A stretch of DNA of 63,794 nucleotides, the filler included, from Candidatus Coatesbacteria bacterium (lineage in GTDB: Bacteria > JAFGND01): assembly GCA_016927185.1 (NCBI GenBank). It is 5 parts of 5 records of this genome, joined end to end, with 100 filler letters (N's around TTAATTAATTAA, not from the genome) between each part and the next. Parts side by side here need not be neighbours in the genome. Positions count along the whole stretch, not along the records: positions 1 to 15,888 come from JAFGND010000025.1; 4 more parts are not named here. The stretch is one strand, 5' to 3'. Positions 1 to 23,548 of the stretch are shown here, in pieces. Position numbers and translations under genes: made by a program. The notes beneath the pieces were generated by a model. The model saw only the letters and a program-made list of their open reading frames with translations, did no database searches and was not told the origin of the DNA. Within the stretch, counting starts at the first letter, position 1. Every line of letters begins with the position of its first letter.

Positions 1-105
1 AAAGATTTTATTTTCCAGATCATCAGGATTGGTATTAAAATCTTTCCTTTTCACCTTGTTGTATGAAATTCTTATATTGCAGATTTCACTAAGCAGTTTT
101 ATCAT
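1..105 (-). CDS. Possible 5' fragment of a gene running off the window edge (MIKLLSEICNIRISYNKVKRKDF...)
   Basis: ATG at 105 with an open frame to position 1; divergent from the 285 ORF; no recognisable motif. Confidence 0.3.
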   Translation of the reverse strand, partial: MIKLLSEICNIRISYNKVKRKDFNTNPDDLENKIF

Positions 106-284
106 GAAGCCTTGCTATTTCAGAGTGTTGATTTGTCAATGATTTATTACATGGAATGAGTCTATGGTAATAAATCGATATTGTCATTCATGAAGAGGCA
201 ATATCCATTGACAAAATAATCTGAATGGAAATTCGATAACTTTCATGAATATAAGATTAGAGCGAAAGAGCGTATAGAATAATA

Positions 285-1931
285 GTGAAATCTTTTAAAA
301 ATGCAATTTCATTTATCCAGAAGCAGGATATAAAACCGATAGTGATATTGCTTTTTATCAGTATTATATCATATCAGCTACTTCTGCCATACAATTATTT
401 CGTTTTTGATGATTGGGCTTTGTTTGCACATGGTAGTACTCTTAACTCAAGACAGGTTTTCCAGAGTTCACTGTTGGAACCTGCAAGACCTTTTTACTGG
501 CTTGTAGACCTTACTTTGTCAAGCATGGCAGGAAGAAACATTTGGATTTACAGATCTGTCTGGTTCATTTCCTGGTTGATATTACCTTTGCTTGTTTATA
601 TTTTCTTCAGGGAATATATGAATAGCAGGTATTACGCAACAATAATTTCTGTAATTTATTTGCTCCTTCCTAACAAGCATGAAATCCATCACTGGTTCAC
701 AATACTTCCTGCAAACATCCACCTTGCTCTGCTTCTGGTAACATTGACTCTTATTATAAGAGGTATGAATCAAAACAAGCAGAACCTGCTTCTTGTTTCA
801 CCTGTTTTATATATCCTGATGCTAGCGCTTTATGAAATGGCTTTAGGTCTGCCTCTCTTGATTATAATTTACTATTACATCTGGAAACCACCCATTAATA
901 AAAAATTCGTTTTCAGATATGCTTTCATAATGCTATTTTGCTTCATTTTTTATATGATCTGGAGAATGAGCAATGCATTTGGTATGGGATATGAGATTGT
1001 AGAGAGAATAAGCAGAATTAATATTTATCCTACAATGATTATTTCAAATCTGATAAATGGTCTGGAATATATATCCCCATCTGGACTGTTATGTTTTGCC
1101 AATACAGGAATGCTTGGCTGGAATTTCATTTTCAGGTTTGGTATTGCTTTATTTATCCTGCATCTTGCATCAGCATTGATTTCGGTTTTTCTGCTTATGA
1201 AGTATCTGCATGAAAAGAATGAAACCAGCAATGAGAACATTGATTATAAAAGGCATTTGTTATTTGCATTTGCATCAATGTTTATTCTTGTCCCTACGCT
1301 TTATTTCTGGGGGGGTAGTGCAATAAGACATTGGGGTTATGGAGATATAGGATTATCTGTAATAGCTTTCTGTATCTTGTTCATCATCCTGAATGCAGCA
1401 GGAAGATACAGAAAAATAGTTTCAAAATTAATGATCTTGCTGCTATTGTTTTTAATTTTCATAAACCAGGGACAGTCAATGAACTGGGCTTTTGTTTCTT
1501 ACTGGCAGGAGCTTATTTACAGGCACCTTGAAACAAGGAAGGAGGATTTATCTGAAGATAAATATATTGTTCTGATAAGTTATTCTCCATACTTGCGAAG
1601 ATATTTCAACAAAAATTTCTTACAGTCATATCCAAATTTCATAAGGGGAGTAGGATTCTACGAAACATGGATAATAGAAGGAATGTCTGTTTTTATTACT
1701 GGAAAAAAACCGAAATATTTCAAATGCAAAGATGAGTATTCCGAAATGATATTCAGGGATGATTGCATTGAATATATTGATATCAATAATTGCATCAAGA
1801 AGATAAGCATTGAAGAAGTTGTCCTCGTAGATGTAGTTGAATTGCTTGCACCTCATGCCAGAGAATGGAAAATATTGCTTCCTGAGAAAAAAACAAAGAG
1901 AATTGTACCATGGTTTTCTGAAGTGAGATGA
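285..1931 (+). CDS. Polytopic membrane protein, probable GT-C fold glycosyltransferase (GtrII/PMT-like)
   Basis: About 11-12 hydrophobic segments; DDW acidic pair after TM1 followed by RP motif (ARPF); YE motif; soluble C-terminal tail; GTG start. Confidence 0.6.
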   Translation: MKSFKNAISFIQKQDIKPIVILLFISIISYQLLLPYNYFVFDDWALFAHGSTLNSRQVFQSSLLEPARPFYWLVDLTLSSMAGRNIWIYRSVWFISWLILPLLVYIFFREYMNSRYYATIISVIYLLLPNKHEIHHWFTILPANIHLALLLVTLTLIIRGMNQNKQNLLLVSPVLYILMLALYEMALGLPLLIIIYYYIWKPPINKKFVFRYAFIMLFCFIFYMIWRMSNAFGMGYEIVERISRINIYPTMIISNLINGLEYISPSGLLCFANTGMLGWNFIFRFGIALFILHLASALISVFLLMKYLHEKNETSNENIDYKRHLLFAFASMFILVPTLYFWGGSAIRHWGYGDIGLSVIAFCILFIILNAAGRYRKIVSKLMILLLLFLIFINQGQSMNWAFVSYWQELIYRHLETRKEDLSEDKYIVLISYSPYLRRYFNKNFLQSYPNFIRGVGFYETWIIEGMSVFITGKKPKYFKCKDEYSEMIFRDDCIEYIDINNCIKKISIEEVVLVDVVELLAPHAREWKILLPEKKTKRIVPWFSEVR

Positions 1932-1940
1932 GTAAAGTTT

Positions 1941-1966
1941 AGGGAGAGCAGAAATACTCTCCCTTT
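1941..1966. terminator. Hairpin between convergent genes, probable intrinsic terminator
   Basis: AGGGAGAG-cagaaata-CTCTCCCT inverted repeat followed by TT. Confidence 0.6.
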
Positions 1967-1969
1967 GCT

Positions 1970-2692
1970 TTATTTCACTTCATACTCAATGAGATCCAGT
2001 GTAACAACTTTTTTCTCTGATGATTCTTCTAGAGTATATATAGCACTTTGCTTTACTATTCCTATATCCTTGCAATACCAGGCATAAGTATTTTCTTCAC
2101 CTTCAGTCACATATTCAGTCTTTGCACAATTAGTGAAATCGTTTCCTTTGCCGGTTTTGTTAGTAACTGTCTCGAATGAAAGTATTCTGGCAGTATAATC
2201 AGGATCTTGCGGATCACATTGCCATGAATCTCCCTGCTTAGGAGTGCATTCAAAGAATCCCTCCCAATCTGAGAAATTGGTTGATTCGTCATCACCTTTA
2301 GACCTGTAATAGGTGTTATCTTTTCCAATATAATCATGGTCATAAATCGTGTCTATATAAGTATTTCCAGAAAAATTGGTGGTGATTATCTCTGTTTCAT
2401 CAACTATCTTGCATATTGTTGAGCCTTCTACCAGTGTATCTCTTACAACCCTTAAAGTATATTCAAGTTTTATGTGCACTGGTAAACCCATGAAAGTAAT
2501 ATCTGTTTCACCACTATATTTCCAGTAACTTCCATCAGTCAAGGGAATCCAGTTTCCTTCACCTCCAGTCCCTGTACCAGAACCGGTTCCAGTTCCTGTC
2601 CCATTATCAGTAGAATCATCTCCGCAGGAAGAAAAATAGAAGCAAACAGATATAATCAGAAGGGATATTGCAAGTTTGAAAGCATGTTTCAT
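1970..2692 (-). CDS. Lipoprotein with Gly-Thr repeat linker and beta-rich domain (DUF3108-like)
   Basis: Start moved to the ATG at 2692 (AAGGAGA upstream); lipobox FSSC; CGDDSTDNGTGTGTGSGTGTGG; C-terminal WY..DIGIVK motif. Confidence 0.7.
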   Translation of the reverse strand: MKHAFKLAISLLIISVCFYFSSCGDDSTDNGTGTGTGSGTGTGGEGNWIPLTDGSYWKYSGETDITFMGLPVHIKLEYTLRVVRDTLVEGSTICKIVDETEIITTNFSGNTYIDTIYDHDYIGKDNTYYRSKGDDESTNFSDWEGFFECTPKQGDSWQCDPQDPDYTARILSFETVTNKTGKGNDFTNCAKTEYVTEGEENTYAWYCKDIGIVKQSAIYTLEESSEKKVVTLDLIEYEVK

Positions 2693-2854
2693 TATTTCTC
2701 CTTTCATTTCATTTGTTGTGAAGTTATAACTCTATATGAAATGCAAATTAAAGCAAAGTTTGTCAATAAATTTTGATCTGCAAGTTAAGTTTCCTTGACA
2801 GAATTCGATTTATTAGATTCTAATTCATAGGCACCAAATGAAAGAAAGGTTTCT

Positions 2855-3715
2855 ATGAGAGCGATTCTATTTTGTTTACTTTTATGTTCAATACTTTTTT
2901 CTGGATGCAAGAATCATATTCAACCATCCTTGATTGTAGAGGATTTTCTGACAAATCTTCAATCTGGGAAGGTTGATGAAGCAATGAAATCAATATCTCC
3001 TTCTGATGCCAAACTCCTTAAGTCAATAGATGCTATATCCAGGAAAATTAAAAAAGATTATCCAGAATTGTCTAGGGAAATTGCCCCATTTGAAGTAATT
3101 CCATTTCTTTATTTGAACCTGAAGGGAAAAACATTTAAAACTACTGTTATTAAAGCTGATAATGACAAAGCTATAGTTAATGCGTTGATAATTCCCTCAG
3201 AAAAAGACAAAAAACCAATTTCCAATACGTTTAATTTAGTTAAAAACAAGGAAGATGGAAAATGGGTTATAGTTTTGTCGCTCAATCCTGAGCTGGAAGC
3301 AAAACTTAATGAACTAGTTCCCTTGACAATGGTAAGCACTTTCTATAAATACCTCAAGGAAAACAAGATCAATGAGGCAAAGGAATTTGTTGTAGAGGGA
3401 GAGAAAACTCTTATAGATAGTGTTTTCAAAACTCCTGTAACTTCAAAACCGGAAAATCCATTACCCCAGCCCAAAGTTGATACACAACCGCAAATTAACA
3501 TCAGTCCTTATGAAAGATTGAAGAATGGAAAAATCGAATGCAGGGGAGTCAAGATAAAAGGGGAATTAGCAACTGTTAATATAAGTTTTGAAGAAGCTGA
3601 TTACAAGGAGAGTCTGAAAATTGTTAATGGAAAGTGGAGAATAGATCTTTCTGGAAGTGAGATAATGGCAAAACTTAAGCCACCACTGCCAGTTACAGAT
3701 AACTTAAAACAATAG
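2855..3715 (+). CDS. Lipoprotein with two NTF2-like (DUF4878-like) domains
   Basis: Lipobox FSGC; two repeats of P..V..F...L......A and LVK..DGKW.I / LKIVNGKWRID. Confidence 0.65.
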   Translation: MRAILFCLLLCSILFSGCKNHIQPSLIVEDFLTNLQSGKVDEAMKSISPSDAKLLKSIDAISRKIKKDYPELSREIAPFEVIPFLYLNLKGKTFKTTVIKADNDKAIVNALIIPSEKDKKPISNTFNLVKNKEDGKWVIVLSLNPELEAKLNELVPLTMVSTFYKYLKENKINEAKEFVVEGEKTLIDSVFKTPVTSKPENPLPQPKVDTQPQINISPYERLKNGKIECRGVKIKGELATVNISFEEADYKESLKIVNGKWRIDLSGSEIMAKLKPPLPVTDNLKQ

Positions 3716-3728
3716 AAAAGGATTTGAA

Positions 3729-4493
3729 ATGAGGATAACAGTTTTAACATCGATACTATTTGTTTTTGGCATTTTTATAACAGGATGCAGGGGAAATGAT
3801 CCGAAAAGCAAAGCTATCGAGTTTATGGAAAGTTGCCAGAAAGGTAATACAAAAAATGTACTGGATATCTTGAGTGATAATGATAAAAAGGTTTTTTCTG
3901 AGGTTAATGATGAAATAAAGAAAATAGCCAGTGATTATCCCTTTCTTATGAAGAAAACTGGAATGCTGAATCTTCTTGACTTGGCAGAAAAAGACTTGAA
4001 AGGAAAGAAATTCAAGGTTTTAAATATCACTTTTTATAGTAACAACAAGGCTGATGTAGAGATTGCTGTTTTTTCAATAGAATCTTCTTCAAATCCCAAA
4101 GTAATTCCAGTTAGAATGATAATGTCAAAAGATGACCAATGGAAGGTATATTTAGGATTAGGGAATGGCGAGGCAAGCAAAATAAGGGAGTCAATTCCTC
4201 TTGCTGTCACAAAAATTTTCTTTGATAACCTGACACAAGGAACAGCTAACAATTTTCTTGATTTGGTTTGCAGCTACAGAAAAGAGAAAATCAGGAGTGA
4301 AATAGAGGAAAACGCTGAAAAATTCAGATATATAACTTTTAAATATGAACCGGTGGAAATAATAGCTGATTCGGCATTTGTTCCAGTGACTGTAAAAGGC
4401 GAAAAAAATGCTGAAAAACAAATGAAGATTAAACTTGTAAAGGAAAACAGCATATGGTATATAGATTTAGAGAAGCTTCCAGCAATTATATAA
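3729..4493 (+). CDS. Lipoprotein with two NTF2-like (DUF4878-like) domains, paralog of the upstream gene
   Basis: Lipobox ITGC; shared segments with the 2855 ORF (DYP.L, LKGK.FK, W.IDL). Confidence 0.65.
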   Translation: MRITVLTSILFVFGIFITGCRGNDPKSKAIEFMESCQKGNTKNVLDILSDNDKKVFSEVNDEIKKIASDYPFLMKKTGMLNLLDLAEKDLKGKKFKVLNITFYSNNKADVEIAVFSIESSSNPKVIPVRMIMSKDDQWKVYLGLGNGEASKIRESIPLAVTKIFFDNLTQGTANNFLDLVCSYRKEKIRSEIEENAEKFRYITFKYEPVEIIADSAFVPVTVKGEKNAEKQMKIKLVKENSIWYIDLEKLPAII

Positions 4494-4506
4494 TGGAGGA
4501 AACCAG

Positions 4507-6225
4507 ATGGGAATAACCGCAGGCATTGATCTTGGAACCTCAACATCTGAAATCGGTTACCTGAAGAATGGATTTCCTTATTTGATACCAAATCATGAGG
4601 GAAAGAAAATTACTCCTTCTGTTGTAGGAATGTCTCCTCAGGGAGAGTTATTGGTAGGAGATAGAGCTAAATCACAGCAAATAGCTAATCCATCGAACAC
4701 AATTGCAGAAATAAAACGTCATATGGGAACAAATTACAGGGTTAAGTTTGCTGATAAGCTATGTACTCCCCAGGAGATTTCAGCTTTTATTCTGAGGTAT
4801 CTGAAGAGCTTTGCTGAGGATTATCTTGGTGAAATCATAGAAGAAGCAGTAATTTCAGTTCCCGCTTATTTTTCAGATACTCAGAGACAGGCAACAAAAG
4901 ATGCTGGTGAGCTTGCAGGTTTCAAGGTTGAAAGGATAATTAATGAACCTACTGCAGCAGCATTGGCTTATGGAATAAGAAATCTTGATAAAAACCAGCA
5001 TCTTCTGGTTTACGATTTGGGAGGCGGAACTTTTGATGTAAGCATTCTTGAGATGTTTGATGGTGTTCTGGAAGTAAAAGCATCAGCTGGAAACAACAGA
5101 CTTGGTGGAACAGATTTTGATCAGAGAATAATGGATTTCGTTTTAGCAGAAATAAACAAGCAATTCAAGATAGATTTAAGCAATAATATGCAATCCCTGA
5201 CAAGGATAAAAGATGCTGCAGAACAAGCAAAAATAAAGTTAAGCGATGATCCGGTTACATTAATTTCTCTTCCATATATAGGAATGAAAGATAACAAACC
5301 GGTTTCCTTCGAAACAGAGCTAACCAGAACATATTTCGAGACAATGATTACGGATCTTTTAATGTCTACATTAAGTCCTCTGGATAAAGTCCTTCATGAT
5401 GCGGATCTAGCTGCAAAAGATATTGACATAATTCTTCTAGTCGGTGGTTCAACTAAAATTCCGTTATTGAAACAGCTTATTACTGATATGTTTGCAAAAG
5501 AACCTCGCTCCTCCATAAATCCAGATGAAGCCGTTGCACTTGGAGCAACTGTTCAGGCAGGCATCAAGGCAGGTCTTTACAGTGAAGAGAAGGATATATT
5601 GATTACTGATGTATGTCCTTATACTCTCGGTACTGATGTTGTAGTAGATGTAGGTGGCGAATTATTACCTGGAGTATTTGATCCATTGATAAAGAGAAAT
5701 ACAACAATACCTACTACTGCAAAAAAAATATATGCTACATTGATAGAAAATCAGGAGAAGGTCAGGATAGGGATTTATCAAGGTGAGGAAAGCATAGCAA
5801 AGGAGAATAATTTTTTAGGAGAATGTGAGCTATTGAATATCCCTCAAGGACCTGCTGGGAAAGAGAAAATAGAAGTAGAATTCTCTTATGATATAAATGG
5901 CATCCTGAAGGTAAAGGGTATTATATTGTCAACTTCAGAATCGGTTTTTATGACTATAGATACTAGCAACAAGGTAATGAGTGCTGAAGAAAAAATAAAT
6001 GCTGCAGCTGAAGTGGAAAACATTTGGAATCACTCTCAATATATGAAAAGGGTAAATGCTCTTCTGGAGAGTGCGGAAGAGAAATTGTCTGAAATGGAAG
6101 GTACTGAGGCAGGAAGACTTCAGGAAATACTTGAAAATCTGAGAAGTGCCTTACTTAGAGACGCAATTGATGAGGTTCAGAAATGGGAAGAGGAACTGAC
6201 GGATTTTCTATTCAATCTGGAATAG
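4507..6225 (+). CDS. Hsp70-family chaperone, HscC-like (not the housekeeping DnaK)
   Basis: GIDLGTS, VPAYF, INEPTAAALAYG, DLGGGTFDVS, LVGGSTKIP, PDEAVALGA; linker DILITDVCPYTLG resembles HscC; 572 aa with short lid; GGAGGA RBS. Confidence 0.92.
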   Translation: MGITAGIDLGTSTSEIGYLKNGFPYLIPNHEGKKITPSVVGMSPQGELLVGDRAKSQQIANPSNTIAEIKRHMGTNYRVKFADKLCTPQEISAFILRYLKSFAEDYLGEIIEEAVISVPAYFSDTQRQATKDAGELAGFKVERIINEPTAAALAYGIRNLDKNQHLLVYDLGGGTFDVSILEMFDGVLEVKASAGNNRLGGTDFDQRIMDFVLAEINKQFKIDLSNNMQSLTRIKDAAEQAKIKLSDDPVTLISLPYIGMKDNKPVSFETELTRTYFETMITDLLMSTLSPLDKVLHDADLAAKDIDIILLVGGSTKIPLLKQLITDMFAKEPRSSINPDEAVALGATVQAGIKAGLYSEEKDILITDVCPYTLGTDVVVDVGGELLPGVFDPLIKRNTTIPTTAKKIYATLIENQEKVRIGIYQGEESIAKENNFLGECELLNIPQGPAGKEKIEVEFSYDINGILKVKGIILSTSESVFMTIDTSNKVMSAEEKINAAAEVENIWNHSQYMKRVNALLESAEEKLSEMEGTEAGRLQEILENLRSALLRDAIDEVQKWEEELTDFLFNLE

Positions 6226-7574
6226 AGAACTATCCTAAATGTCCTATTTGCAATGAAACAGAAGTAAGCGGAAAAATCTGCAGGAAATGCAATGTGTCTT
6301 TGCTACCCCTGAAAGCGATTTTTGAACATGCGCAGATGCAATATAACAAATCACTGGAATCTGCAAAAAAAAGCAGGTGGAAGGAGGCAAGTCATTATCT
6401 TGAAGAAGCATACAAAATTATTGGAGACAATAATGAAATACTAATACTAAAGGGGTTGATTGATTACAATAACGGAGATTTTGCATCGGCAAAAGTAAAT
6501 TGGAAAAAAGCTGATACCTTGCTTCCCAGGGATAAGGCATCTTATCTTTTAAAAGAATATATAAGTCCATGGGAAGAAGCTATTGAGTTATATAATGATG
6601 CCCTGCACTTCTGCAAGATTAAAAAATACAGTGATGCCATAGAATTACTTGAGACAATAATAGATAATCTCGGGAATGAGAAGGATAAAGGTTATTTCCT
6701 TCTTGGTCTGGCTTATGCAAAAACGGGGAAAGTTGGCAGATCAATAATTGCTTTCAACAAAATAAAGGATGAACCGGAATTAAGCAGATCGAGATTTATA
6801 ATGGATTCATTGGAGATGAAACCTGGCAAGAAACAAGAAACAGGCAAAAGCAGTTTCATGATTTATGGCCTCTCAGGCATTCTTGCAGGTGTTATAATCA
6901 CTTCTGCGTTGTTGTTTTTATTACCATCCTACCTGCAGAACAAAACAAGAGAACCTGAAATAGTCTCCCCCAAAGTAATAGTAAAAGAAAAACTAAAAGA
7001 TCCTGATTTGAATTTGAAAATCTATAAACTGAGTAATACATTGATTTCTCTCAGGGTTAAAATGGAATGGCTGCAATTCAAGGTTTTCATGCAGGAACAG
7101 GATTATCTTAGTGCTGCATTGCTCACTAAAAGCATAAGAGAGATAGATTTGTCTGAAGAAGAGAGAATAGAGTTTAACAGAATGAAAGAAGAAGCACTCA
7201 TAAAAGCTGGTTGGATTCTGCTTAGAAAGGCAGAGGAAGATGCAAGAGGGAAGTATTTTGAAAGTGCTATTGATAATGCTAAATTATCATTTGAATTCTC
7301 TCCCAATCAATATTATTCGCAAAGGGCATACATGCTTCAGATTGAATCACTGCTTGCACTTTCAAGGAAAGAAGAAGCACTGAAGCTTTACCAGAATTTT
7401 TATAATAACTTTCCAAGGTATGGCGAAATAGACAGGATTTTGCAGCAGGGATATAATATTGCAGTGGAATTGAATGATGAAAAGGCAATTGATGATATTT
7501 TATCTCAACTTCGTTCTTATGCACCCTTTTCAGGAATTACAAGGGAGTTGAATAAAAGGAGAGATAGAGATTGA
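6183..7574 (+). CDS. Zn-ribbon + TPR + single TM + TPR protein
   Basis: CPIC-x9-CRKC; TPR-like helices (GYFLLGLAYAKTG); hydrophobic helix FMIYGLSGILAGVIITSALLFLL; C-terminal TPR (EALKLYQNFYNNFP); overlaps Hsp70 end by 43 nt. Confidence 0.75.
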   Translation: MGRGTDGFSIQSGIENYPKCPICNETEVSGKICRKCNVSLLPLKAIFEHAQMQYNKSLESAKKSRWKEASHYLEEAYKIIGDNNEILILKGLIDYNNGDFASAKVNWKKADTLLPRDKASYLLKEYISPWEEAIELYNDALHFCKIKKYSDAIELLETIIDNLGNEKDKGYFLLGLAYAKTGKVGRSIIAFNKIKDEPELSRSRFIMDSLEMKPGKKQETGKSSFMIYGLSGILAGVIITSALLFLLPSYLQNKTREPEIVSPKVIVKEKLKDPDLNLKIYKLSNTLISLRVKMEWLQFKVFMQEQDYLSAALLTKSIREIDLSEEERIEFNRMKEEALIKAGWILLRKAEEDARGKYFESAIDNAKLSFEFSPNQYYSQRAYMLQIESLLALSRKEEALKLYQNFYNNFPRYGEIDRILQQGYNIAVELNDEKAIDDILSQLRSYAPFSGITRELNKRRDRD

Positions 7575-8278
7575 AAAAAAATGCAAGATTACTTATTATT
7601 GTTTTATTAACAGGAGTTTTTAATATGTGTAGCAATTCTAACAAAACAAGTGCTGAGAACAATGATAATTCTGATGCAGTTTCCAGTGAGATAGTTCTTC
7701 CTTCTCCCAGCAAAGACGGGAAGGTTTCTGTAGAAAAAGCACTTCAAGAAAGGCGTTCAATAAGAAGATTTAAAGATACTCCACTATCACTAGGTATTGT
7801 TTCGCAAATGATGTGGGCTGCTTATGGAACAACAAATGAAAGAGGTTTCAAGACGACCCCATCTGCAGGAGCAATTTATCCTCTTGAATTTTATGTTGCA
7901 ATTAGCAAGGTTGAAGGGATTGAAGCAGGTTTGTATAAATATAATTCTCTTCATCACAAGTTGAAACTGATAAAGAGTGGGGATTTGAGAAAGGATCTTT
8001 CAGAAGCGTCATTGGGGCAAAGTTGTATAAAAAACGCATCGTTTATTATTATCTTCACTGCAGTATTTGGAAGCATAAAATTGAGATATGGCAACAGGGG
8101 AATCCAGTATACACATAATGAGGTTGGTCATGCCGGACAGAACATCTATTTACAGGCAGTTTCCCTTAATATTGGAACAGTTGTAGTTGGAGCGTTTGTT
8201 GAGGAAAAAGTGAAAGCTGTTCTTGATCTTAAGGATAATCAATCAGTCTTGTACATGATGCCTGTTGGGCAGAAGTAA
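7571..8278 (+). CDS. SagB/ThcOx-family nitroreductase-like flavoprotein
   Basis: RRSIRRF, PSAGAIYPLE, RYGNRG, EVGHAGQNIYLQA, VGAF motifs; start may instead be the internal Met (MCSNS) with AGGAG upstream. Confidence 0.9.
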   Translation: MKKNARLLIIVLLTGVFNMCSNSNKTSAENNDNSDAVSSEIVLPSPSKDGKVSVEKALQERRSIRRFKDTPLSLGIVSQMMWAAYGTTNERGFKTTPSAGAIYPLEFYVAISKVEGIEAGLYKYNSLHHKLKLIKSGDLRKDLSEASLGQSCIKNASFIIIFTAVFGSIKLRYGNRGIQYTHNEVGHAGQNIYLQAVSLNIGTVVVGAFVEEKVKAVLDLKDNQSVLYMMPVGQK

Positions 8279-8284
8279 GCGGGA

Positions 8285-10276
8285 TTATTCTACAATCATT
8301 CCTGCTGATGCACCTTCATCAACAGTTATCATGAATATGTCTTTTCCTCCTGAACCTGTTGCCAGGATCATTCCATTAGATGTCCCGAATTTCATTTTCT
8401 TTGGTTTCAGGTTAGCAACAAGTATCACTTTTTTCCCAAGAAGTTTTTCTCTATCATAAGCTTCCTTGATTCCAGCAAAAACCGTTACTTTCTTGAAACC
8501 AATATCAAGGATTAGTTTCAGAAGTTTGTCAGCACCATCAACTTCTTCAACTCCCTTTATTTCTGCAATTCTCAGATCCACTTTTGCAAAATCCTCATAT
8601 TCTATCTCTTTCTTGAGATTGCTGGCAGGTTTCTGCAGGGGGGGAGGTTCCTTGCTGGCATCCATTATTTGTTCCATGGTTTTTATATCTACTCTCTGAG
8701 CGAGATGTTCATAATTGTTTATTTCACAATTCTCCATATATTTTTCAATGTCTTCCCACTTGAAATCTTCTATCCTGAGCATTTTTTCAGCATTTCTTGA
8801 TATCACAGGTATAATCGGTTTGAGATATAGAACCAGAATTCTGAAGATGTTAATACAGGTAGTCAGATCTCTATGTGCTTTTTTCTTGTCTGTCTTTATT
8901 GTAAGCCATGGAGCTGCCTTGTCTATGAATATATTAGCTTCGTCTGCCATGGATACTATATCACGTATTATCTGGCTGAAATTCAATTCAGCGTAATATC
9001 GGGCTATTGCTTCTTTTATTTTCGTGAAATTATCAAGTATTTCCCTGTCTTCTTTTTCAAGGATACTTAGTTTTCCAGCAAAGTATTTGTGCAGCATCGG
9101 AATGGATCTTGAACCCAGATTAACAATCTTGCCAACAATCTCAGAATTAATCTTGTTAACAAAATCCTCAATTCCCATGTTCATGTCTTCAATGCTTGAT
9201 GTGAGCTTACTTGCATAATAGTATCTCAAGTAATCTGTATTTTTTATGTATTCTGCAAATGTTTTTGCCAGAATGAAGGTTCCTTTTGATTTACTCATCT
9301 TCTTGCCATCAATTTGCAGAAAACCATGGATATACACCTTGTCCGGTAATCTGTAATCTGCTGTTATAAGCATGGCAGGCCAGAACAAGCAATGGAAGTA
9401 TTGAATATCCTTACCTATAAAATGAATCAATTGTCTTGATTTATTTTCGAAATGTTCGCTGAAATCCTTGTTTTCCCTTTCGCACCAGTTTTTTATGGAT
9501 GCAAGATAACCAATTGGAGCATCCCACCAGTTGTAAAAGTATTTGTCATCACTATCCGGAATCCTGAATCCGAAAAATGGGGCATCTCTCGAAAAGTCCC
9601 ATTCCCTGAGTCCCTCATAAAACCACTCCATCATCTTTTTCTTTACTGATTCACTTAAAGCATCAGAATTTATCCAGGATTTCAGCTCTTCCGAAAGCAT
9701 TCGTAAGTCAAAGAAATAATGAACCGCTTCCTTCTTCACGGGAGATGTTCCACAAAAAGAACAATGTGCATCAGTTATTTCAGAAGGAGTGTATGTTGCT
9801 CCACATGTATCGCAGGAGTCACCATACTGGTCTTCAGCACCACACTTCGGGCATGTACCCTTGATAAATCTGTCGGGAAGGAATATCCCGTCTGAAGGGC
9901 AAAAAAGCATTTCAATGGTCTTGTTTTTGACCATTCCCTTTTTCAGAGCAGATCTGTAAAAGTTTAGAGTGAATTCCTCATTTTCCTTAGAATGTGTTGT
10001 ATAATAGTTGTCAAATTTGATATTGAATAATTTATAATCAGCAATATGTCTTTTCCTGACACTTTCAATGAATTCTTCTGGCTTCATTTTATTTTTTCTG
10101 GCAGCGATCATTATTGCAGTTCCATGAGAGTCATCTCCAGCAAAAAAATGACATTCATTTCCAGTCATTTTCTGGAAGCGAACCCAGATATCTGTCTGGA
10201 TTGCCTCTATTAAATGCCCTAAGTGAATTTCTCCATTTGCATAAGGGAGAGCCATTGTAACTGTCATTTTATTCAT
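8285..10276 (-). CDS. metG: Methionyl-tRNA synthetase
   Basis: ALPYANG..HLGH, Zn knuckle CPKC/CDTC, GKDI, KMSKS, C-terminal tRNA-binding OB domain (FAKVDLRIA...NLKPKKM). Confidence 0.98.
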   Translation of the reverse strand: MNKMTVTMALPYANGEIHLGHLIEAIQTDIWVRFQKMTGNECHFFAGDDSHGTAIMIAARKNKMKPEEFIESVRKRHIADYKLFNIKFDNYYTTHSKENEEFTLNFYRSALKKGMVKNKTIEMLFCPSDGIFLPDRFIKGTCPKCGAEDQYGDSCDTCGATYTPSEITDAHCSFCGTSPVKKEAVHYFFDLRMLSEELKSWINSDALSESVKKKMMEWFYEGLREWDFSRDAPFFGFRIPDSDDKYFYNWWDAPIGYLASIKNWCERENKDFSEHFENKSRQLIHFIGKDIQYFHCLFWPAMLITADYRLPDKVYIHGFLQIDGKKMSKSKGTFILAKTFAEYIKNTDYLRYYYASKLTSSIEDMNMGIEDFVNKINSEIVGKIVNLGSRSIPMLHKYFAGKLSILEKEDREILDNFTKIKEAIARYYAELNFSQIIRDIVSMADEANIFIDKAAPWLTIKTDKKKAHRDLTTCINIFRILVLYLKPIIPVISRNAEKMLRIEDFKWEDIEKYMENCEINNYEHLAQRVDIKTMEQIMDASKEPPPLQKPASNLKKEIEYEDFAKVDLRIAEIKGVEEVDGADKLLKLILDIGFKKVTVFAGIKEAYDREKLLGKKVILVANLKPKKMKFGTSNGMILATGSGGKDIFMITVDEGASAGMIVE

Positions 10277-13200
10277 CTTCTTCTTTTCCTTCTTTCCTTC
10301 TTTTCTGGAGACGGTTTTGTTGGATCCTCCATATTTACAGGTGATGAAGATTGTGTCTCAAGTCTTTTCAAATGATCATCTGCATCCTTTGAAATATCTT
10401 TGTACTTCTTTTGCTCTTTTGCTTTCATGTAATAATCTTTTGCCTTCTCTATATCCCCTGTTGCCTGATAGCATTCACCAATCATTATATGTGCTGCATA
10501 ATATGTTTCATCTCTGTCTTCAAAAAACCTTATTACTTTCATGAAATTCAGGACTGCCTTGTTATAGTCCTTGACCTGCTGATATGCCCCTCCTCTGTGA
10601 ATCAGTATATTTTTCTGGACTTCAGGATTGGAACTCATATTTTCAGCTTTCTTGAAGAAATGCAGAGCAGAATTCAATTGTCCCTGATTGTGATAGCAAT
10701 AACCAATCTGCATGAGTAGTTCAGCTTTTGCTTCGTTTTTTTTCTCCAGAGACAAGGATTCCTGTAAATACCTGATCGCTTCATCCCAGGCGCTTAACTG
10801 CTGAGACAACAATCCTAAGTTTGCCAGTATTGCTTTTCTGTGTTCTTGAGTCTTGCTTTGATTCAATAGCTGATTATATATCAACTTTGCCTCAGCCAGC
10901 TTCTCATTATCAATATAAAGATCAGCAAGATTGAAACCAGCTTCAATTCTCAGAGAATCTGTTACACCTTCTTTCATTACTTTGCTGAAATTGTATGTTG
11001 CAGTTTCCTCATCTTTTTCAAACCTTGATAAAACTCCAAGATGAAGCATTGACCATTGTTTTGTTGCTGTGGGTGTATTGTTATCCTTTATCAGCGAGCT
11101 GAATACCATTTTTGCAGATTTTATTCTTTTGCCCTTTACCTCAAGAAGTCCTTCTTCATATCTTATTAGTGCGTAATAATCCTCATCATTTGGATAGTAT
11201 TTCCTGTAGAATTTGATAATTCTTCTAGCTTTTGTAATTCTATTAAGTCTAAGATTGCATATTGCTTGATAAGCTACTGATTCTGGATCATCCTTATTCT
11301 TGATAAAGTAAGAAAGAGCTTCTTCGTATTTCTCATTCTCGAAATTAAGTTTGCCAATAGTTCTGTTATAATAAATTTCAGAAGATTTCGGCTTTAGTTT
11401 CTTCAGATAATCTAATGTTTCCTGGCTATGCCCCAGCTTTATCGCTATCTGTATCAGACTGCCAAGTATTTTTGCCTGGGTTTTCTTGTCAGAATTATCA
11501 ACATCTTTTAAAGCTTCCTGATACTTTTCATAAGCATCTTTTGTCCTGCCTGCAAGTTCAAGCGCATTTGCATACTGGTAAAGCAATTCTCCATGCATCT
11601 TCTTTGACTTGTGAATGGTAAGCAAGTTCTGGTATATTGCCAATCCTCTCTGAATTTTTCCAAGTTTTATGTATATATCAGCCAGTCTGGACTTTGATGA
11701 TAGCAAATCCTTGCCAAATGGAAATTCTATAATATATCTTTCATAAATACCAGCAGATTCAGATAATTGTCCGAGTTTAAAGTATGTTTCTCCCAACACG
11801 AAATATGCGTCTGATTTGTAAGGTGAACTATATGGAGAATTAACTGCATTGTAGAGATTTTTCGCGGCAATATTATATTCTCCATATTTGTTCCAGTATT
11901 GTCCAAGTAGGAAAAAAGCTTCAGTTTGATACTGTTTGTCTTTTTGATAAGCTTCTGTTAATGAAATTATGGCATCTGGAGATGTCTTTCCCCAATTCTT
12001 CAGAAGCAATGAGGCTTTCATGAGACTTAAATCCGCAAGGTAAGGTTCTTTAGGATTTTGTTTGAGCAAATCATCTATCATATTCAAAAGGGATGTAAAA
12101 TCATCGGTCTCTTTCAGCGAAATCAGGGTTATTGCTGCTGAGAACTCGAAATCACCCCCTGTTTTCAAATTCATCACTTCTTCTGCATTTTCTACAGCAT
12201 CATTTCTATATTTGCTGCTATTTTCATCATAACAAATAGCATAATAATATGCTTTTTCATTAAGAAGAGCAGCAAGAAGATGATAATTTGCCTTATCACT
12301 ATCTTTTTTCCGTCCTGATATTTCTGAAGCAGCTTTCCTGAAATCTATTATGTCCCTGTCTATTGCATCAGAGATGACATACCTGTTTCCTTTAGCAGCA
12401 ACAAGCAAAAGATTATCCAGTAATCCTCTTATATCCCCCTCAGTATTCTTATAAAGGAGACGGCTTTTTGCAAGTGGATAAAAACGTGAAGCAGACATTT
12501 CTTCTATAATCCTTTTGTAATGACTTTCAGATTTTGTATAATCCCCTTTTAAACGATAGTTTTCAGCTAGTTCAAAAACCACCCAGTCTGCTAATGGATT
12601 AACTGGCATAATGATAAGCTGATTTAAATATGATATTGCATCATCATATCTCTTGCTCTCCTTGAGGTTTATTGCTTTCCTGAGAAGAGGTTCAATTTTA
12701 CTTAAGTTGAATGATGGTTCAAGCGAACCTATTTCTCCCTTGTCTTTCAGATTATAAGATGATACCTCGCTTTTATATCTTGAGTTTGGATAGAGGGCAA
12801 GGAAATTTTCTATCTCCATTTTCACTTCTTCCCTTCCAGTCGAGTATAATGCCTTTATGAGATAGTAATGACCTTCTTCGGAATACTCAGAATTTCTTCC
12901 AAGAGACTGAAATTCTTCAAGATAACGTATTGCGAGGGCATAATTCCCAAGACTCAAGGCTGCCTTGCCAGCTTCAAGTCTTGCTCTGTTTGCAAGAGGA
13001 TGATAAGGATTGTTCTTGAGAAAGGATCTGTATGTTTCAAGGGCTCTAGGGTAATTTCCTGATGCTGACTGGATCAATCCCAAAGATAGATTTATCTGAG
13101 CTTGTTGGAGATTCTGAGGGAATTCCTTAAGCAGATTATTAAGAAGAATTTCTGCCTCATCATTTTTCTTCTGACCAATAAGACAATCTGCAATTAATGT

Positions 13201-13836
13201 TCCTGCTTCTATTTTTAGTTCAGGTTTCATTCCCTTGTATAGTCCTATTAGTGCTTCATAAGCTTCTTTGTAATTCCTTTCAGCAATATGGATTCTGCTT
13301 TTCAGAATAGCAATTTCGTTCACATATTGTTTCCTTAAATCCTGGGATAGATTATCAAGCATTGTTTTTGCAATACCAGGTCCTTCTTTTGAAAGGGCGA
13401 TCCTTATTTTATAGAGTTTCGCAATCTGTCCTGCAGGAGTATCCTGGTATTTTGCTTCCAGTCTGGAAAGAATACTCTCTGCTTCATTGAAACTGCCATT
13501 TGATATTTTTCTCTCTACTACTCCGATAAGAAGAGTAGGAGTTTTTGGATGATTTGGATACTTCCTTACAAAGGCTTCACTAAGGTTATTGATCTTGTCA
13601 TTATAACCAAGTTTTTCATCAACCTGAAATAAAAGCAGGTAGTATTCTATCAAATTTGGGCTGTTTGGATAAGTTTCCAGAAGCTCTTCCAGCTGTGCTT
13701 CTGCCAATTCATATTGCCCGGTAATTATAAGCTGCTTTGCAAATCCAAACAGGGTTTTTTCAGTAACAGCAGCACTTGTCAAAGAAACAAATATTAATAT
13801 TATGAAAAGATATCTGAACATATCACTCCATTCCAT
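10273..13836 (-). CDS. Large secreted TPR-repeat protein (CpoB/BamD-like repeats)
   Basis: Signal peptide; many TPR units with YP.S/FP turns (LLETYPNSP, YIIEFPFG); basic tail; start could be the second Met. Confidence 0.8.
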   Translation of the reverse strand: MEWSDMFRYLFIILIFVSLTSAAVTEKTLFGFAKQLIITGQYELAEAQLEELLETYPNSPNLIEYYLLLFQVDEKLGYNDKINNLSEAFVRKYPNHPKTPTLLIGVVERKISNGSFNEAESILSRLEAKYQDTPAGQIAKLYKIRIALSKEGPGIAKTMLDNLSQDLRKQYVNEIAILKSRIHIAERNYKEAYEALIGLYKGMKPELKIEAGTLIADCLIGQKKNDEAEILLNNLLKEFPQNLQQAQINLSLGLIQSASGNYPRALETYRSFLKNNPYHPLANRARLEAGKAALSLGNYALAIRYLEEFQSLGRNSEYSEEGHYYLIKALYSTGREEVKMEIENFLALYPNSRYKSEVSSYNLKDKGEIGSLEPSFNLSKIEPLLRKAINLKESKRYDDAISYLNQLIIMPVNPLADWVVFELAENYRLKGDYTKSESHYKRIIEEMSASRFYPLAKSRLLYKNTEGDIRGLLDNLLLVAAKGNRYVISDAIDRDIIDFRKAASEISGRKKDSDKANYHLLAALLNEKAYYYAICYDENSSKYRNDAVENAEEVMNLKTGGDFEFSAAITLISLKETDDFTSLLNMIDDLLKQNPKEPYLADLSLMKASLLLKNWGKTSPDAIISLTEAYQKDKQYQTEAFFLLGQYWNKYGEYNIAAKNLYNAVNSPYSSPYKSDAYFVLGETYFKLGQLSESAGIYERYIIEFPFGKDLLSSKSRLADIYIKLGKIQRGLAIYQNLLTIHKSKKMHGELLYQYANALELAGRTKDAYEKYQEALKDVDNSDKKTQAKILGSLIQIAIKLGHSQETLDYLKKLKPKSSEIYYNRTIGKLNFENEKYEEALSYFIKNKDDPESVAYQAICNLRLNRITKARRIIKFYRKYYPNDEDYYALIRYEEGLLEVKGKRIKSAKMVFSSLIKDNNTPTATKQWSMLHLGVLSRFEKDEETATYNFSKVMKEGVTDSLRIEAGFNLADLYIDNEKLAEAKLIYNQLLNQSKTQEHRKAILANLGLLSQQLSAWDEAIRYLQESLSLEKKNEAKAELLMQIGYCYHNQGQLNSALHFFKKAENMSSNPEVQKNILIHRGGAYQQVKDYNKAVLNFMKVIRFFEDRDETYYAAHIMIGECYQATGDIEKAKDYYMKAKEQKKYKDISKDADDHLKRLETQSSSPVNMEDPTKPSPEKKERRKRRR

Positions 13837-13884
13837 CCAAAAAGACTTTACCCTGAACTCATAAAGCCATGTCTATGTCAAGGT

Positions 13885-15575
13885 TTACCATAGTGTTGAG
13901 GCAGAAAGATACAAATAGCCTGAAAGAGGTTCATTTTTTCTTTCTATAGCATAATCTAATCCAAGCTTGATTGCCTGTCTTTGCATCCTGACACCAAAAC
14001 CGTAACCTAGCCTCCCAATTTCGCAAAACTCCTTTCCTTTGTAATTATGTTTGAAACCGATTCCGTAATCAAGAAGTGGATAAACCCAGAATCTTGGATG
14101 AGGATACAAATTGAATTGATTGTTTATGACAAGGCAAACTGTTCTTTTTATCATGTCAGGCTTCAAACCTCGCACACCATTTAATCCTCCGAGATCTATC
14201 CAGTCATATATATCAGGATTTGAATTTCTTGAATAGAGCCAGTTGATTTTTGGAGAAAAATAAAAGCTAATTCTCTTATAAAAGGGAATATATAAAGATG
14301 AGTAGCTTTCATTCAATAGCCTGAAGCTTTTTTCAGATTCTTTGGAAGTATGAATAATCCATTTGTAACCTGTACCAAATTCCATTCCTTTTTTGGGAAT
14401 AAATGGATTATCAAGATTCTTGTATTTCAAAGCTGTAATGAAAAGATTTTGAGAATAATTGGATGCGGAATCCTCATCTTCTGATATGCTTTTTGCAACT
14501 CCCAATCCAGTAGTGAAAGTAATGCTTCTTGAAAGATAAAGCAAAACATCAATTTCTGCGTCAAATTTGGTGAAAATGTCAGGTTTTCTCTGTCTTGATA
14601 TAGATAGTTTTATATCGAAAGGTACATTTAAAGGTCTTGGCTCGAGATATGAAAGCTCAAGTTCTGATTCTTTCTGTGAAAGCCAGTAAAGATCTACATT
14701 TCTACCTCTTCCTCCAAGATTTCCCAGCCTTATGTCAAGCTGCCCTAGAATAGTATTGCTGGTATCAGGTGAAGCTGATATGACACCAGAAATAAGATAA
14801 GTCTTAAGCTCATCCAGCTCAAATATCAGGTCAGCTTTACCAGGTTGATTTGTATCTGCCCAGTACACTTTGGGAAAGCTTTCATAGTAACCAAGAACAT
14901 ATAATCTTTCTCTTGCTGTCTCAATTTTTTCCTTTGTAAGCAACTCGTTCTTGCTAATAGAAGTTATTCTTGCAAGAAATGAAGGTTCGCTTCTTTTTAT
15001 ATTCTGGAATTTTATCGATTGAAGATAAACTGGATATCGTTCATAAATCCTGTAGTAAAGTTTCAGTATATTGTTTTTTTTCTCTATGTCAGTCAGAATT
15101 ATATATGCTTTAAGGTAACCGTATTCTGCATATAAAGAGATGAGTTTTTCTAGAATCCTTGCTGGATAATTACTATCGAATTCCTTTGCTGGATCTGAAA
15201 AGATCTTCCACTTTATGAAAGAATCAGAAAACCTTTTTATTCCGCTGATATTCATCTCTATCGTACTTGTTTTCAGTATATTTTCCGCTTTAAGATTATA
15301 TAGAATAGAACCATCCTTTATTCTCCAGTTCCATTTTATTTTTGCATCAAGATAACCAGCTCTGGAAAGGAAACCTGCCATGTTACTGGCATACTGCCTT
15401 GCATTATCTATTGTGAAAACATCACCAATCACAGGTTCGTTGAAAGTGATGTCTGAAGGAAAATCTATTTCACAACGTTTTAATGTTGGTTCAGAAATAT
15501 TTTCAGATGAGCAACCTGGCAAAATCAGAGAAACAAAAAAAAAATGGCAATTTTCGGAAATCTTAATGTCCCCAT
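13885..15575 (-). CDS. BamA/TamA (Omp85)-family outer-membrane protein; signal peptide out of frame at a T10 tract
   Basis: POTRA-like motifs (SRAGYLDA, AEYGYLKA, LYVLGYY), NLGGRGR, LGGLNGVRGL, GYGFGVR, terminal W; ATG at 15575 joins the 15522 frame if the tract at 15535-15544 is T11. Confidence 0.75.
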
Positions 15576-15888
15576 ACTAACCACAAGAAAATGAATCCTG
15601 CTGCAGTCGAAGCAGCAGTAAAAGGAAGTCCTAGTTTGATAAATTCCCAGCTGCTTGCAGTATGACCATTCTTTTTGAGCAAACCCATGGCAACCACATT
15701 TGCAGAAGCACCAAGTGGAGTTATGTTGCCACCTATGCAGGAGCCTATAAGCAAACCGAATAGAAGTAATACATATGCATGTTCTCCTCCAATACTCAAG
15801 CCCAGTTTTCCAGCCACAGGAAGCATGACAGTAATATATGGCACATTATCTATGAAAGCACTAAGCAAGACGCTTATCCATACAATCA
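15563..15888 (-). CDS. C-terminal part of an ArsB/NhaD/SLC13 (CitMHS-like) transporter, truncated by contig end
   Basis: SAFIDNVP, GGNITPLGASANVVA, EFIKLGLP motifs. Confidence 0.85.
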
Positions 15889-15988
15889 NNNNNNNNNNNN
15901 NNNNNNNNNNNNNNNNNNNNNNNNNNNNNNNNTTAATTAATTAANNNNNNNNNNNNNNNNNNNNNNNNNNNNNNNNNNNNNNNNNNNN
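15889..15988. other. Artificial contig linker (N44-TTAATTAATTAA-N44)
   Basis: Identical 100-nt spacer with stops in all six frames, seen four times. Confidence 0.98.
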
Positions 15989-16078
15989 AAACACTCTCTT
16001 GATACAAGTAGCTGGAAACAGGGAGTTTATATTGTGAAGAGCGGTAAAGAATGCAAGAGGGTAGTGAAGATAAGATGA
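15989..16078 (+). CDS. 3' end of a secreted protein carrying the T9SS-like C-terminal tail (not in ORF track)
   Basis: Translates KHSLDTSSWKQGVYIVKSGKECKRVVKIR*, matching the tails of the 16177 and 62093 ORFs. Confidence 0.8.
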   Translation, partial: KHSLDTSSWKQGVYIVKSGKECKRVVKIR

Positions 16079-23327: not shown

Positions 23328-23548
23328 CCTATTCTTGCTTTCAAGAATTCATACTCACTTTCTGTTATTTCAGCTGGATAATTAAATGGTATCCCTACCA
23401 TGATCAGTTGACCTATTTTTTGTTCCAGACTTAATTCAGCTTCTTTTTGCACCTTGACTAATTCTTTTTTTTCAACTATAAAATAATCTTGTTTGCCAGA
23501 TTTACAGGAAATAATAATTGTAATAAAAAAAAAAATGACCTGTTTCAT
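23328..23548 (-). CDS. N-terminus of a GH3 (NagZ-like) lipoprotein, truncated by contig end
   Basis: Lipobox IISC; LSLEQKIGQLIMVG is the typical GH3 N-terminal motif. Confidence 0.7.

Follow-up and report, generated by a model that had tools for sequence, protein, structure and literature searches.

The window analysed here is a 63,794-nucleotide stretch of DNA from Candidatus Coatesbacteria bacterium (assembly GCA_016927185.1), and positions 2855 to 8278 of it hold five plus-strand genes that encode, in order, two lipoproteins, an Hsp70, a protein combining a Zn ribbon, tetratricopeptide repeats (TPRs) and one transmembrane (TM) helix, and a SagB/ThcOx-like protein. On balance we think it probable that the Hsp70 and the Zn ribbon/TPR protein are the core pair of a specialised, non-housekeeping Hsp70 machine of the HscC type, which is tethered to the membrane by the Zn ribbon/TPR protein, assisted by helpers acting in trans, and linked to the cell envelope. 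The locus would then be a variant of a conserved accessory Hsp70 cassette, dispersed over the genome and linked to the envelope.

The Hsp70 gene (4507..6225, + strand) encodes 572 amino acids (aa) and matches Pfam family PF00012 with an E-value (E) of 2.8e-166. A preliminary description of this DNA had reported intact ATPase motifs and an HscC-type linker, and both were found: GIDLGT lies at residue 6, NEPTAAA at 146, DLGGGTFD at 170, and LVGGST at 311, and the interdomain linker DILITDVCPYTLG spans residues 363–375. Its scores lie under the curated NCBIfam cut-offs of all DnaK and HscA models (586 versus at least 648, and 409 versus 709). The closest relative is 77% identical (P0003 and locus L083); the next ones, at about 50% identity, are “Hsp70 family proteins” of about 570 aa from Clostridia, Bacilli, and Myxococcota.

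Phylogenies were built with FastTree. With 40 rows, the window Hsp70 groups with Escherichia coli HscC with a Shimodaira–Hasegawa (SH)-like support of 100, and DnaK and HscA fall outside. With 77 rows, an HscC clade of 37 rows (SH-like support 99) comprises the window Hsp70, that of L083, short Hsp70s of Clostridia, Bacilli, and Myxococcota, and E. coli HscC. This clade is nested in one of 50 rows (support 100) that holds all of the short Hsp70s with Zn ribbon–TPR partners, these forming its basal branches, while the host's own DnaK and 22 further canonical DnaKs lie outside the 50-row clade.

Criteria for HscC-type proteins were taken from Mayer 2021 (PMC8215388) and applied to an alignment with E. 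coli DnaK, HscA, and HscC. The features given in the available part of that review are a length of 550–580 residues, a deletion in lobe I of the nucleotide-binding domain (NBD; DnaK ~76–101), an insertion of 4–8 residues in loop L1,2 of the beta part of the substrate-binding domain (SBD-beta), a deletion in helix B of the lid, and an ATPase that only the protein's own J proteins stimulate; E. coli HscC is also described there as being without the GrpE-signature loop (DnaK ~285–295). The window Hsp70, at 572 aa, lies within the length range. It has a 24-residue gap in NBD lobe I at the same place as E. coli HscC, its match to the Pfam hidden Markov model (HMM) is split at positions 75/100, and loop L1,2 carries an 8-residue insertion after LGTD where E. 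coli HscC has 4 residues. Lid gaps of 4 and 3–8 residues fall at the same alignment places as those of E. coli HscC, although their position is alignment-dependent, and a CPY linker is common to the two proteins. Grouping with HscC and sharing its indels, the protein is thus shown to belong to an HscC superclade, as the label “HscC-like” in the preliminary description had proposed.

An acidic and aliphatic tail, EEELTDFLFNLE (6187–6222), ends the Hsp70. Its consensus within the clade, ..ELT(D/N)(L/F)L(F/Y)(E/D)L(E/D/G), is kept from Myxococcota to Clostridia, and the tail is present neither in the basal group with Zn ribbon–TPR–TM partners nor in DnaK.

The partner gene (6183..7574, + strand) encodes 463 aa, and the architecture proposed earlier—CxxC-x9-CxxC, TPRs, one TM helix, and more TPRs—was confirmed, with the proviso that the outer repeats are only TPR-like. 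Its Zn ribbon, CPIC-x9-CRKC, occupies residues 20–36 (6240..6290) and reads C20-P-I-C23, nine residues, C33-R-K-C36; in a family alignment (A1) that includes the window protein and a fragment from L083, residues C20, P21, C23, C33, and C36 are invariant in all ten rows, and the helices that follow the ribbon have the consensus YN.ALE.A..G...EA in common. The cytoplasmic TPR domain is assigned to residues 41–209 (6303..6809) from weak Pfam TPR matches and from the helices of an AlphaFold2 model, which are confident to about residue 140. A single hydrophobic helix follows at residues 224–254 (6852..6944; hydrophobic stretch IYGLSGILAGVIITSALLFLLPSY), and all of the rest of the protein is modelled as helical. 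The full-length model has a mean predicted local distance difference test score (pLDDT) of 56.5, with values of 83–93 for residues ~30–110 and low values elsewhere. Residues 255–463 (6945..7571) form the putative extracytoplasmic, helical, TPR-like domain, in which weak matches to TPR_6 and TPR_14 cover residues 382–416. Atlas features point to TPR clusters for this domain at 0.90–0.91, and the Atlas structure rows include a YfiO/BamD-type TPR with a template modelling score of 0.48–0.52. Identity as BamD/YfiO was rejected, the score against TIGR03302 being 19.2 bits with a cut-off of 81.4, and the likeness is one of repeat type only. Since Zn ribbons are cytoplasmic in nature and the protein has no signal peptide, and mainly on these grounds, the ribbon is predicted to lie inside; we infer a bitopic inner-membrane protein with its ribbon/TPR side in the cytoplasm.

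Neighbourhoods of related Hsp70 genes were sampled from 66 loci of named genomes, 41 metagenome loci, and 15 short-Hsp70 loci drawn from a sample of 400 genomes (the broad sample), and gene content was counted over the 101 related loci in which both neighbours are visible. A gene for a J protein lies within two genes of the Hsp70 in 96 of the 101, and a GrpE-like gene lies upstream in 87; downstream, a TPR gene without a J domain occurs in 22, a Zn ribbon–TPR gene in eight, and a Zn ribbon–TPR–TM gene in four. Directly 3′ of the Hsp70, a Zn ribbon(/TPR) gene is found both in the window and in 8 of the 15 broad-sample loci, where the gene order is J(-TPR), GrpE-like, Hsp70, TPR protein. Four of these downstream proteins (L167, L168, L169, and L170) have the architecture of the window partner, with an N-terminal CPxC-x10-CxxC, TPR, one TM helix, and a long C-terminal part; three (L160, L161, and L162) are soluble Zn ribbon–TPR proteins of 206–221 aa with Pfam TPR matches; and one (L171) is a soluble, helical Zn-ribbon protein of 182 aa that has no Pfam TPR match. 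Two others (L157 and L158) have TPRs on both sides of a hydrophobic segment, which scores as TM in L157 but not in L158, and have no ribbon. A Zn ribbon/TPR gene directly downstream is thus shown to be a recurrent trait of the Hsp70 superclade, and it occurs in soluble and membrane-spanning forms.

Searching the whole library with the A1 profile gave 241179 matches at E <= 1e-3, mostly giant TPR proteins, a figure that does not measure the size of the family; among the best 150 matches ten begin with a Zn ribbon, and eight are further bitopic members. The Clostridial loci have the order GrpE-like, Hsp70, small TPR protein (in the closest relatives), and J/TPR protein of ~465 aa, and the J/TPR partners (L027–L082) end in a SEC-C zinc motif (PF02810). 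As a separate observation, in two Myxococcota loci (L020:7789-9396 and L026:2013-3578) the gene after the Hsp70 encodes a fusion of TPRs with a Lon-type S16 protease.

The locus nearest to that of the window is L083, a 2-kb contig that carries lipoprotein 2, the 77%-identical Hsp70, and the Zn-ribbon protein in the same order. Upstream of its Hsp70 is the C-terminal end of a lipoprotein 2 homologue (41% identity over 34 aa, E 1e-5). Downstream, a gene whose start overlaps the Hsp70 gene as it does in the window encodes the Zn ribbon of a homologue of the partner (31% identity over 58 aa, E 4.5e-8). The order lipoprotein–Hsp70–Zn ribbon/TPR is therefore not confined to the window, this one close relative being the case in which its recurrence was seen.

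The preliminary description had stressed that the system has no J protein, and at the locus itself this stands. No HPD or HPE tripeptide occurs in the five proteins or in two upstream open reading frames (ORFs), and none of the five has a Pfam DnaJ match or any match at E <= 100 to an unfiltered local J HMM (best score 2.8 bits), so that a J domain hidden in the TPR protein was not found by either route. An unfiltered local GrpE HMM likewise gave no signal in the five proteins, and the genes upstream of the Hsp70 encode lipoproteins. These absences, and the place of the locus among just five of the 101 related loci that have no nearby J gene, are what speaks for a trans-envelope Hsp70 system independent of J proteins, with the TPR protein either activating the Hsp70 or standing in for the J protein. 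For the genome as a whole the claim failed. The host genome encodes seven J-domain ORFs, of which four have HPD and three have xPE together with TPRs: a 425-aa protein with PPE (C78:6131-7408) and a 550-aa protein with SPE (C38:10986-12638), both ending in CxxC..CxxC where the Clostridial J/TPR partners have SEC-C, and a 1075-aa protein with SPE (C2:3747-6974), whose J domain lies within a giant TPR protein resembling the 1323–1331-aa proteins of L160 and L162. It also encodes two GrpE proteins. The stronger match, on C72, resembles DnaK-linked GrpEs; the other is a second, divergent GrpE-like protein of 191 aa (C83:6251-6826, − strand; 70 bits), whose best matches are the GrpE-like proteins beside clade Hsp70s and whose gene is flanked by that of a 169-aa lipoprotein and by a 243-aa ORF.

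The Hsp70-family matches in the host are DnaK (with a canonical DnaK–DnaJ pair on C54), the window Hsp70, and one weak actin-like match. All of the xPE J/TPR genes and the C83 GrpE gene are unlinked to the window Hsp70, and because this is the only HscC-type Hsp70 in the genome they would be expected to serve it in trans; trans-acting xPE J proteins and a second GrpE are the simplest reading of the gene content. Moreover, a J-like gene is also present in seven of the eight loci with a Zn ribbon–TPR gene, and the Zn ribbon–TPR protein is therefore no J substitute elsewhere. J-independence is accordingly quite improbable for the locus. By the counts given above, related Hsp70s nearly always have a J-like gene close by, which comes near to the constant pairing with a DjlB/C-type protein that the preliminary description had named as a refutation. 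What survives of the proposal that the TPR protein tethers or activates the Hsp70 is the tether, which is plausible given the same architecture in 4 of the 15 broad-sample loci, a further four having soluble forms; activation in place of a J protein is not supported.

The J domains beside clade Hsp70s (L017–L123 and L157–L172) lack the histidine of HPD without exception: it is replaced in 98 of 98, by SPE in 55, PPE in 12, PPD in 11, TPE in nine, NPE in four, RPE in three, DPE in two, and PNE and PPQ in one each. According to the available part of a 2026 review, HPE is the only tolerated replacement of HPD, and J domains that have lost the histidine are presumed inactive in reviews, so far as their accessible text goes. 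Two further observations were made on contig C67 of the host. A tandem DUF4878 lipoprotein of 291 aa (C67:35059-35934, + strand) is encoded ~1.1 kb from an HPD-type J/TPR protein of 244 aa (C67:33175-33909, − strand), and a second small HPD-type J/TPR protein is encoded at C67:27156-27860, in overlap with the gene for a TPR protein of 315 aa.

Lipoprotein 1 (2855..3715, + strand; 286 aa) has the lipobox FSGC and two NTF2-like (DUF4878-type) domains, and lipoprotein 2 (3729..4493, + strand; 254 aa) has the lipobox ITGC and tandem NTF2-like domains. Lipoprotein 2 matches DUF4878 (PF12870; E 3.6e-7, 30.9 bits with a cut-off of 24.1). Lipoprotein 1 has no Pfam match of its own and is classed as NTF2-like by its paralogy with lipoprotein 2 (phmmer E 6e-15); between its own two halves there is a weak similarity (25% over 122 aa, E 0.02). 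The AlphaFold2 model of lipoprotein 2 (pLDDT 83.6, predicted template modelling score 0.72) has two alpha+beta domains, and the Foldseek matches in the PDB are to 3ub1 (NTF2-like, E 7.8e-6), tandem NTF2-like epoxide hydrolases, and 3k7c (template modelling score by target 0.65). Lipoboxes, paralogy, and the fold match of lipoprotein 2 thus agree with the earlier description of two paralogous, tandem-domain NTF2-like lipoproteins.

ORF calls bear out the tight, same-strand layout that had been reported for the five genes, which are separated in order by a 13-nt gap, a 13-nt gap, a 43-nt overlap, and a 4-nt overlap, with a GGAG/AGGA-like stretch 5′ of all five starts. The gaps and overlaps suggest a single transcript. 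Contigs from a second study that are 95–99% alike (two runs) bridge the junctions of lipoprotein 2 with the Hsp70, of the Hsp70 with the partner, and of the partner with the SagB-like gene, and in one run a contig spans lipoprotein 1 into the Hsp70; because these contigs cross the gene junctions, the arrangement is not an assembly artefact. Scans for promoters and terminators gave no more than shuffled sequence does (28 versus 21.2 +/- 5.4, and 2 versus 4.4 +/- 1.8). Two pieces of RNA contigs were considered as transcript evidence and rejected: they are 90–95% alike with unlike ends and lie on conserved parts of the Hsp70, and so were attributed to other organisms.

The fifth gene (7571..8278, + strand) encodes a SagB/ThcOx-like protein of the nitroreductase fold, 235 aa long from a TTG start, that matches PF00881 (E 1.4e-27) and TIGR03605 (131.7 bits versus 78.4). 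Its N-terminus has a lipoprotein-like signal (..GVFNMC). The database gene call begins at an inner ATG and gives 217 aa; three runs have an in-frame insertion of TTA behind 7603, which lies 5′ of this ATG and supports the long, exported form, and the signal of that form is kept in an 86% relative. The family is large (986 matches among 1393 candidates), and seven of the nine homologues examined begin with a hydrophobic signal, which in several includes a Cys; an exported SagB/ThcOx-like family appears to be widespread. No cyclodehydratase or precursor genes of a thiazole/oxazole-modified microcin (TOMM) pathway are present in the locus, and for this reason, together with the export signal, the protein is by its context no TOMM enzyme.

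In the mechanism that we favour, the cytoplasmic Zn ribbon–TPR domain would bind the Hsp70 and so fix it at the inner membrane. A candidate contact is the clade-conserved acidic/aliphatic tail of the Hsp70, which may be a ligand of the Zn ribbon–TPR domain by analogy with EEVD tails, described in the accessible literature as binding TPR co-chaperones. The xPE J/TPR proteins and the second GrpE would drive the ATPase cycle in trans, and the outer TPR-like domain would couple the machine to envelope proteins, the most likely being the NTF2-like lipoproteins, which could act as ligands, as clients, or as signal input. A more specific version, in which the Zn ribbon/TPR protein is a coupling subunit whose outer domain binds both lipoproteins and senses the state of the envelope or assembles or turns over an envelope complex, we hold to be doubtful. 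If it were true, the locus would encode a chaperone-based trans-envelope device that has no described precedent.

A related possibility is that the bitopic protein is itself a transducer or regulator controlled by the Hsp70, reporting an envelope state sensed through the lipoproteins. Hsp70-controlled regulators have precedents in sigma-32, controlled by DnaK, and in the Rcs pathway, controlled by DjlA and DnaK, and the arrangement of an inside ribbon, one TM helix, and outer repeats resembles that of single-pass signalling proteins. Neither Pfam nor NCBIfam, however, identifies a DNA-binding, sigma, or anti-sigma domain in the locus, and the soluble Zn ribbon–TPR forms in four sampled loci fit a co-chaperone or adaptor better. 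We consider this proposal improbable.

Several observations weigh against the tethered, envelope-linked HscC-type machine. Tree support consists of FastTree SH-like values only, and E. coli HscC is a long branch in both trees. The GrpE-signature loop is kept in the window Hsp70 and its near relatives and is a gap in E. coli HscC and in HscA; the kept loop fits the GrpE-like genes beside the relatives, and its loss may be specific to the enterobacterial branch. The locus sample is mostly Clostridial and includes near-duplicate loci, and a Pfam-verified subset of the same loci served as seed for the J and GrpE HMMs. For the partner, the net charges flanking the TM helix (+2 before, +1 after) are only slightly biased, and the model of the outer domain is poor, with pLDDT <50 over most of residues 167–376. 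Its only close homologue among 8000 scored library candidates is itself, a scan of metagenome contigs found none, and beyond the Zn ribbon its likeness to the family is at the level of TPRs only. The same level applies to its matches in 4 of 40 other genomes, and it comes only ninth when the TPR ORFs of the host are ranked by an HMM built on the small Clostridial TPR partners; pairwise BLASTP gave an E of only 0.008. A complex prediction for the Hsp70 with partner residues 1–222 returned a score of 0.00 and the verdict “no answer”, which weighs neither way.

The link to the lipoproteins is possible, and rests on co-orientation, tight spacing, and the retention of lipoprotein 2 in one close relative. 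At least four further DUF4878 paralogues are scattered in the genome, and the related Hsp70 loci other than L083 (lipoprotein 2) yielded no homologue of either lipoprotein or of the SagB-like protein, so that any envelope link is confined to this lineage. The outer domain shows no likeness to the C-terminal parts of the other bitopic proteins in the family, nor does the host genome contain a paralogue of it; being unlike those parts, it is the variable part of the family. All of this also suits a plainer account, in which an HscC-type machine is tethered by the bitopic partner, its clients are cytoplasmic or in the inner membrane, the outer domain serves only for anchoring or oligomerisation, and the lipoproteins and the SagB-like protein are mere operon neighbours. 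DUF4878 lipoproteins and the exported SagB-like family are common elsewhere with no Hsp70 beside them, and the C-terminal parts of the bitopic members, unlike one another in general, read in L167 and L169 as a long, low-complexity, charged helix. We nevertheless judge this account unlikely, though a serious contender, since the spacing of the genes suggests one transcript, lipoprotein 2 is kept beside the 77%-identical Hsp70 though the flanking proteins have diverged to 31–41% identity, and a TPR-like outer domain is a typical protein-binding module.

The host genome (G000) is 2.99 Mb and 93% complete, with the locus on contig C53 at identical coordinates; positions 23328–44170 of the window map instead to contig C58, and the window and this assembly may be divided differently. 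All of the 400 comparison genomes are related to the host at the level of domain only, and within that collection the organism seems to be isolated at a high rank. Tail-to-tail with the five genes, at 8285–15522 on the minus strand, are genes for methionyl-tRNA synthetase (MetRS), for a TPR protein of 1187 aa that has BamD-like stretches, and for a POTRA/Omp85 (BamA-like) protein of 545 aa; from the BamA-like gene (13885–15522) we infer that the cell has an outer membrane. On the other side, divergent to the cluster (1970–2707, − strand), is the gene for a lipoprotein that has a Gly/Thr-rich linker and belongs to no Pfam family, and about 20 weak paralogues of it occur across the host genome. 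An anti-phage or conflict module had also been suggested. One weak PADLOC match, of the Hsp70 to PDC-M61B (E 3.2e-4, 17.5 bits), points that way, but the other five scanned proteins have no PADLOC match, the flanking genes are of housekeeping and envelope type (MetRS, the large TPR protein, and the BamA-like protein), and no mobile-element or nuclease genes were seen at positions 1–16000; we regard a conflict role as very improbable indeed.

The wider import of the tethered machine lies in its parts. A Zn ribbon/TPR protein is indicated as a constant companion of HscC-type Hsp70s; in many cases this companion crosses the membrane once and has an outer domain that varies, and the J-like proteins that accompany these Hsp70s are uniformly without a histidine regarded as essential. 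These would provide testable handles—tether, activator, and compartment—on a third bacterial Hsp70 system, to which the window adds a possible set of envelope clients or ligands, the NTF2-like lipoproteins.

Among described systems the nearest is HscC of E. coli, encoded at the ybeQ-ybeR-djlB-ybeT-ybeU-djlC-hscC locus, which belongs to the same clade and has the same indels as the short Hsp70 of the window. TPR-like Sel1-repeat genes are also part of that locus. In the literature as available, its partners are the J proteins DjlB and DjlC, which are tail-anchored in the inner membrane and both have HPE; the accessible part of Mayer 2021 (PMC8215388) adds a proposed, vaguely defined role at the plasma membrane and says that E. 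coli HscC is thought not to use GrpE. The J motif is thus a variant, HPE, in E. coli, whereas here it is xPE and has lost the His. The membrane anchor in E. coli is the J protein, and here it is the Zn ribbon/TPR protein, which has no J domain and has a large outer domain. The GrpE-signature loop is gone from E. coli HscC; the window Hsp70 keeps it, and its relatives carry GrpE-like genes.

SglK (MxDnaK2) of Myxococcus xanthus is, from the available descriptions, a second, non-heat-shock Hsp70 that is encoded beside a GrpE homologue of its own (MXAN_6672) and plays a part in social and cell-surface traits. It is described as a PRK00290 DnaK-type protein, and the same descriptions mention no Zn ribbon/TPR partner. 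More generally, the accessible portion of the literature on HscC, DjlB/DjlC, GrpE neighbourhoods, and SglK describes neither a Zn ribbon/TPR partner nor His-less J partners or private GrpEs for HscC-type Hsp70s, although Barriot et al. 2020 may cover part of this; the word TPR does not occur in Mayer 2021 (PMC8215388).

The Clostridial operons contain the nearest named Hsp70 relatives (38–51% identity), with xPE J proteins and, in the closest, a TPR gene directly downstream; they differ from the window in that the TPR protein is small and has no ribbon or TM helix, that the operon includes genes for J and GrpE proteins, and that lipoproteins are absent. DjlA offers a functional parallel as a single-pass membrane partner that recruits an Hsp70 to the inner membrane. 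It is, however, a J protein that acts with DnaK and is not homologous to the window partner. It is likewise listed as a DnaK partner in the available part of PMC8215388.

A further comparison is with the accessory cassette of giant TPR protein, His-less J protein, GrpE-like protein, short Hsp70, and Zn-ribbon protein, of which no description was met in the literature searched. The locus shares with it the Hsp70 superclade and the adjoining Zn-ribbon gene, and the remaining parts—the xPE J/TPR proteins, the giant TPR-J protein (on C2), and the GrpE-like protein—are in the host genome, away from the locus. The cassette is thus broken up here, with two NTF2-like lipoproteins at the usual place of the J and GrpE genes, a Zn-ribbon protein to which a TM helix and a TPR-like outer domain are added, and, next to it, a SagB-like lipoprotein. 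What is new in the window is a broken-up cassette that keeps only the Hsp70 and the Zn-ribbon gene together, with a membrane-spanning Zn ribbon/TPR protein and with lipoproteins as neighbours.

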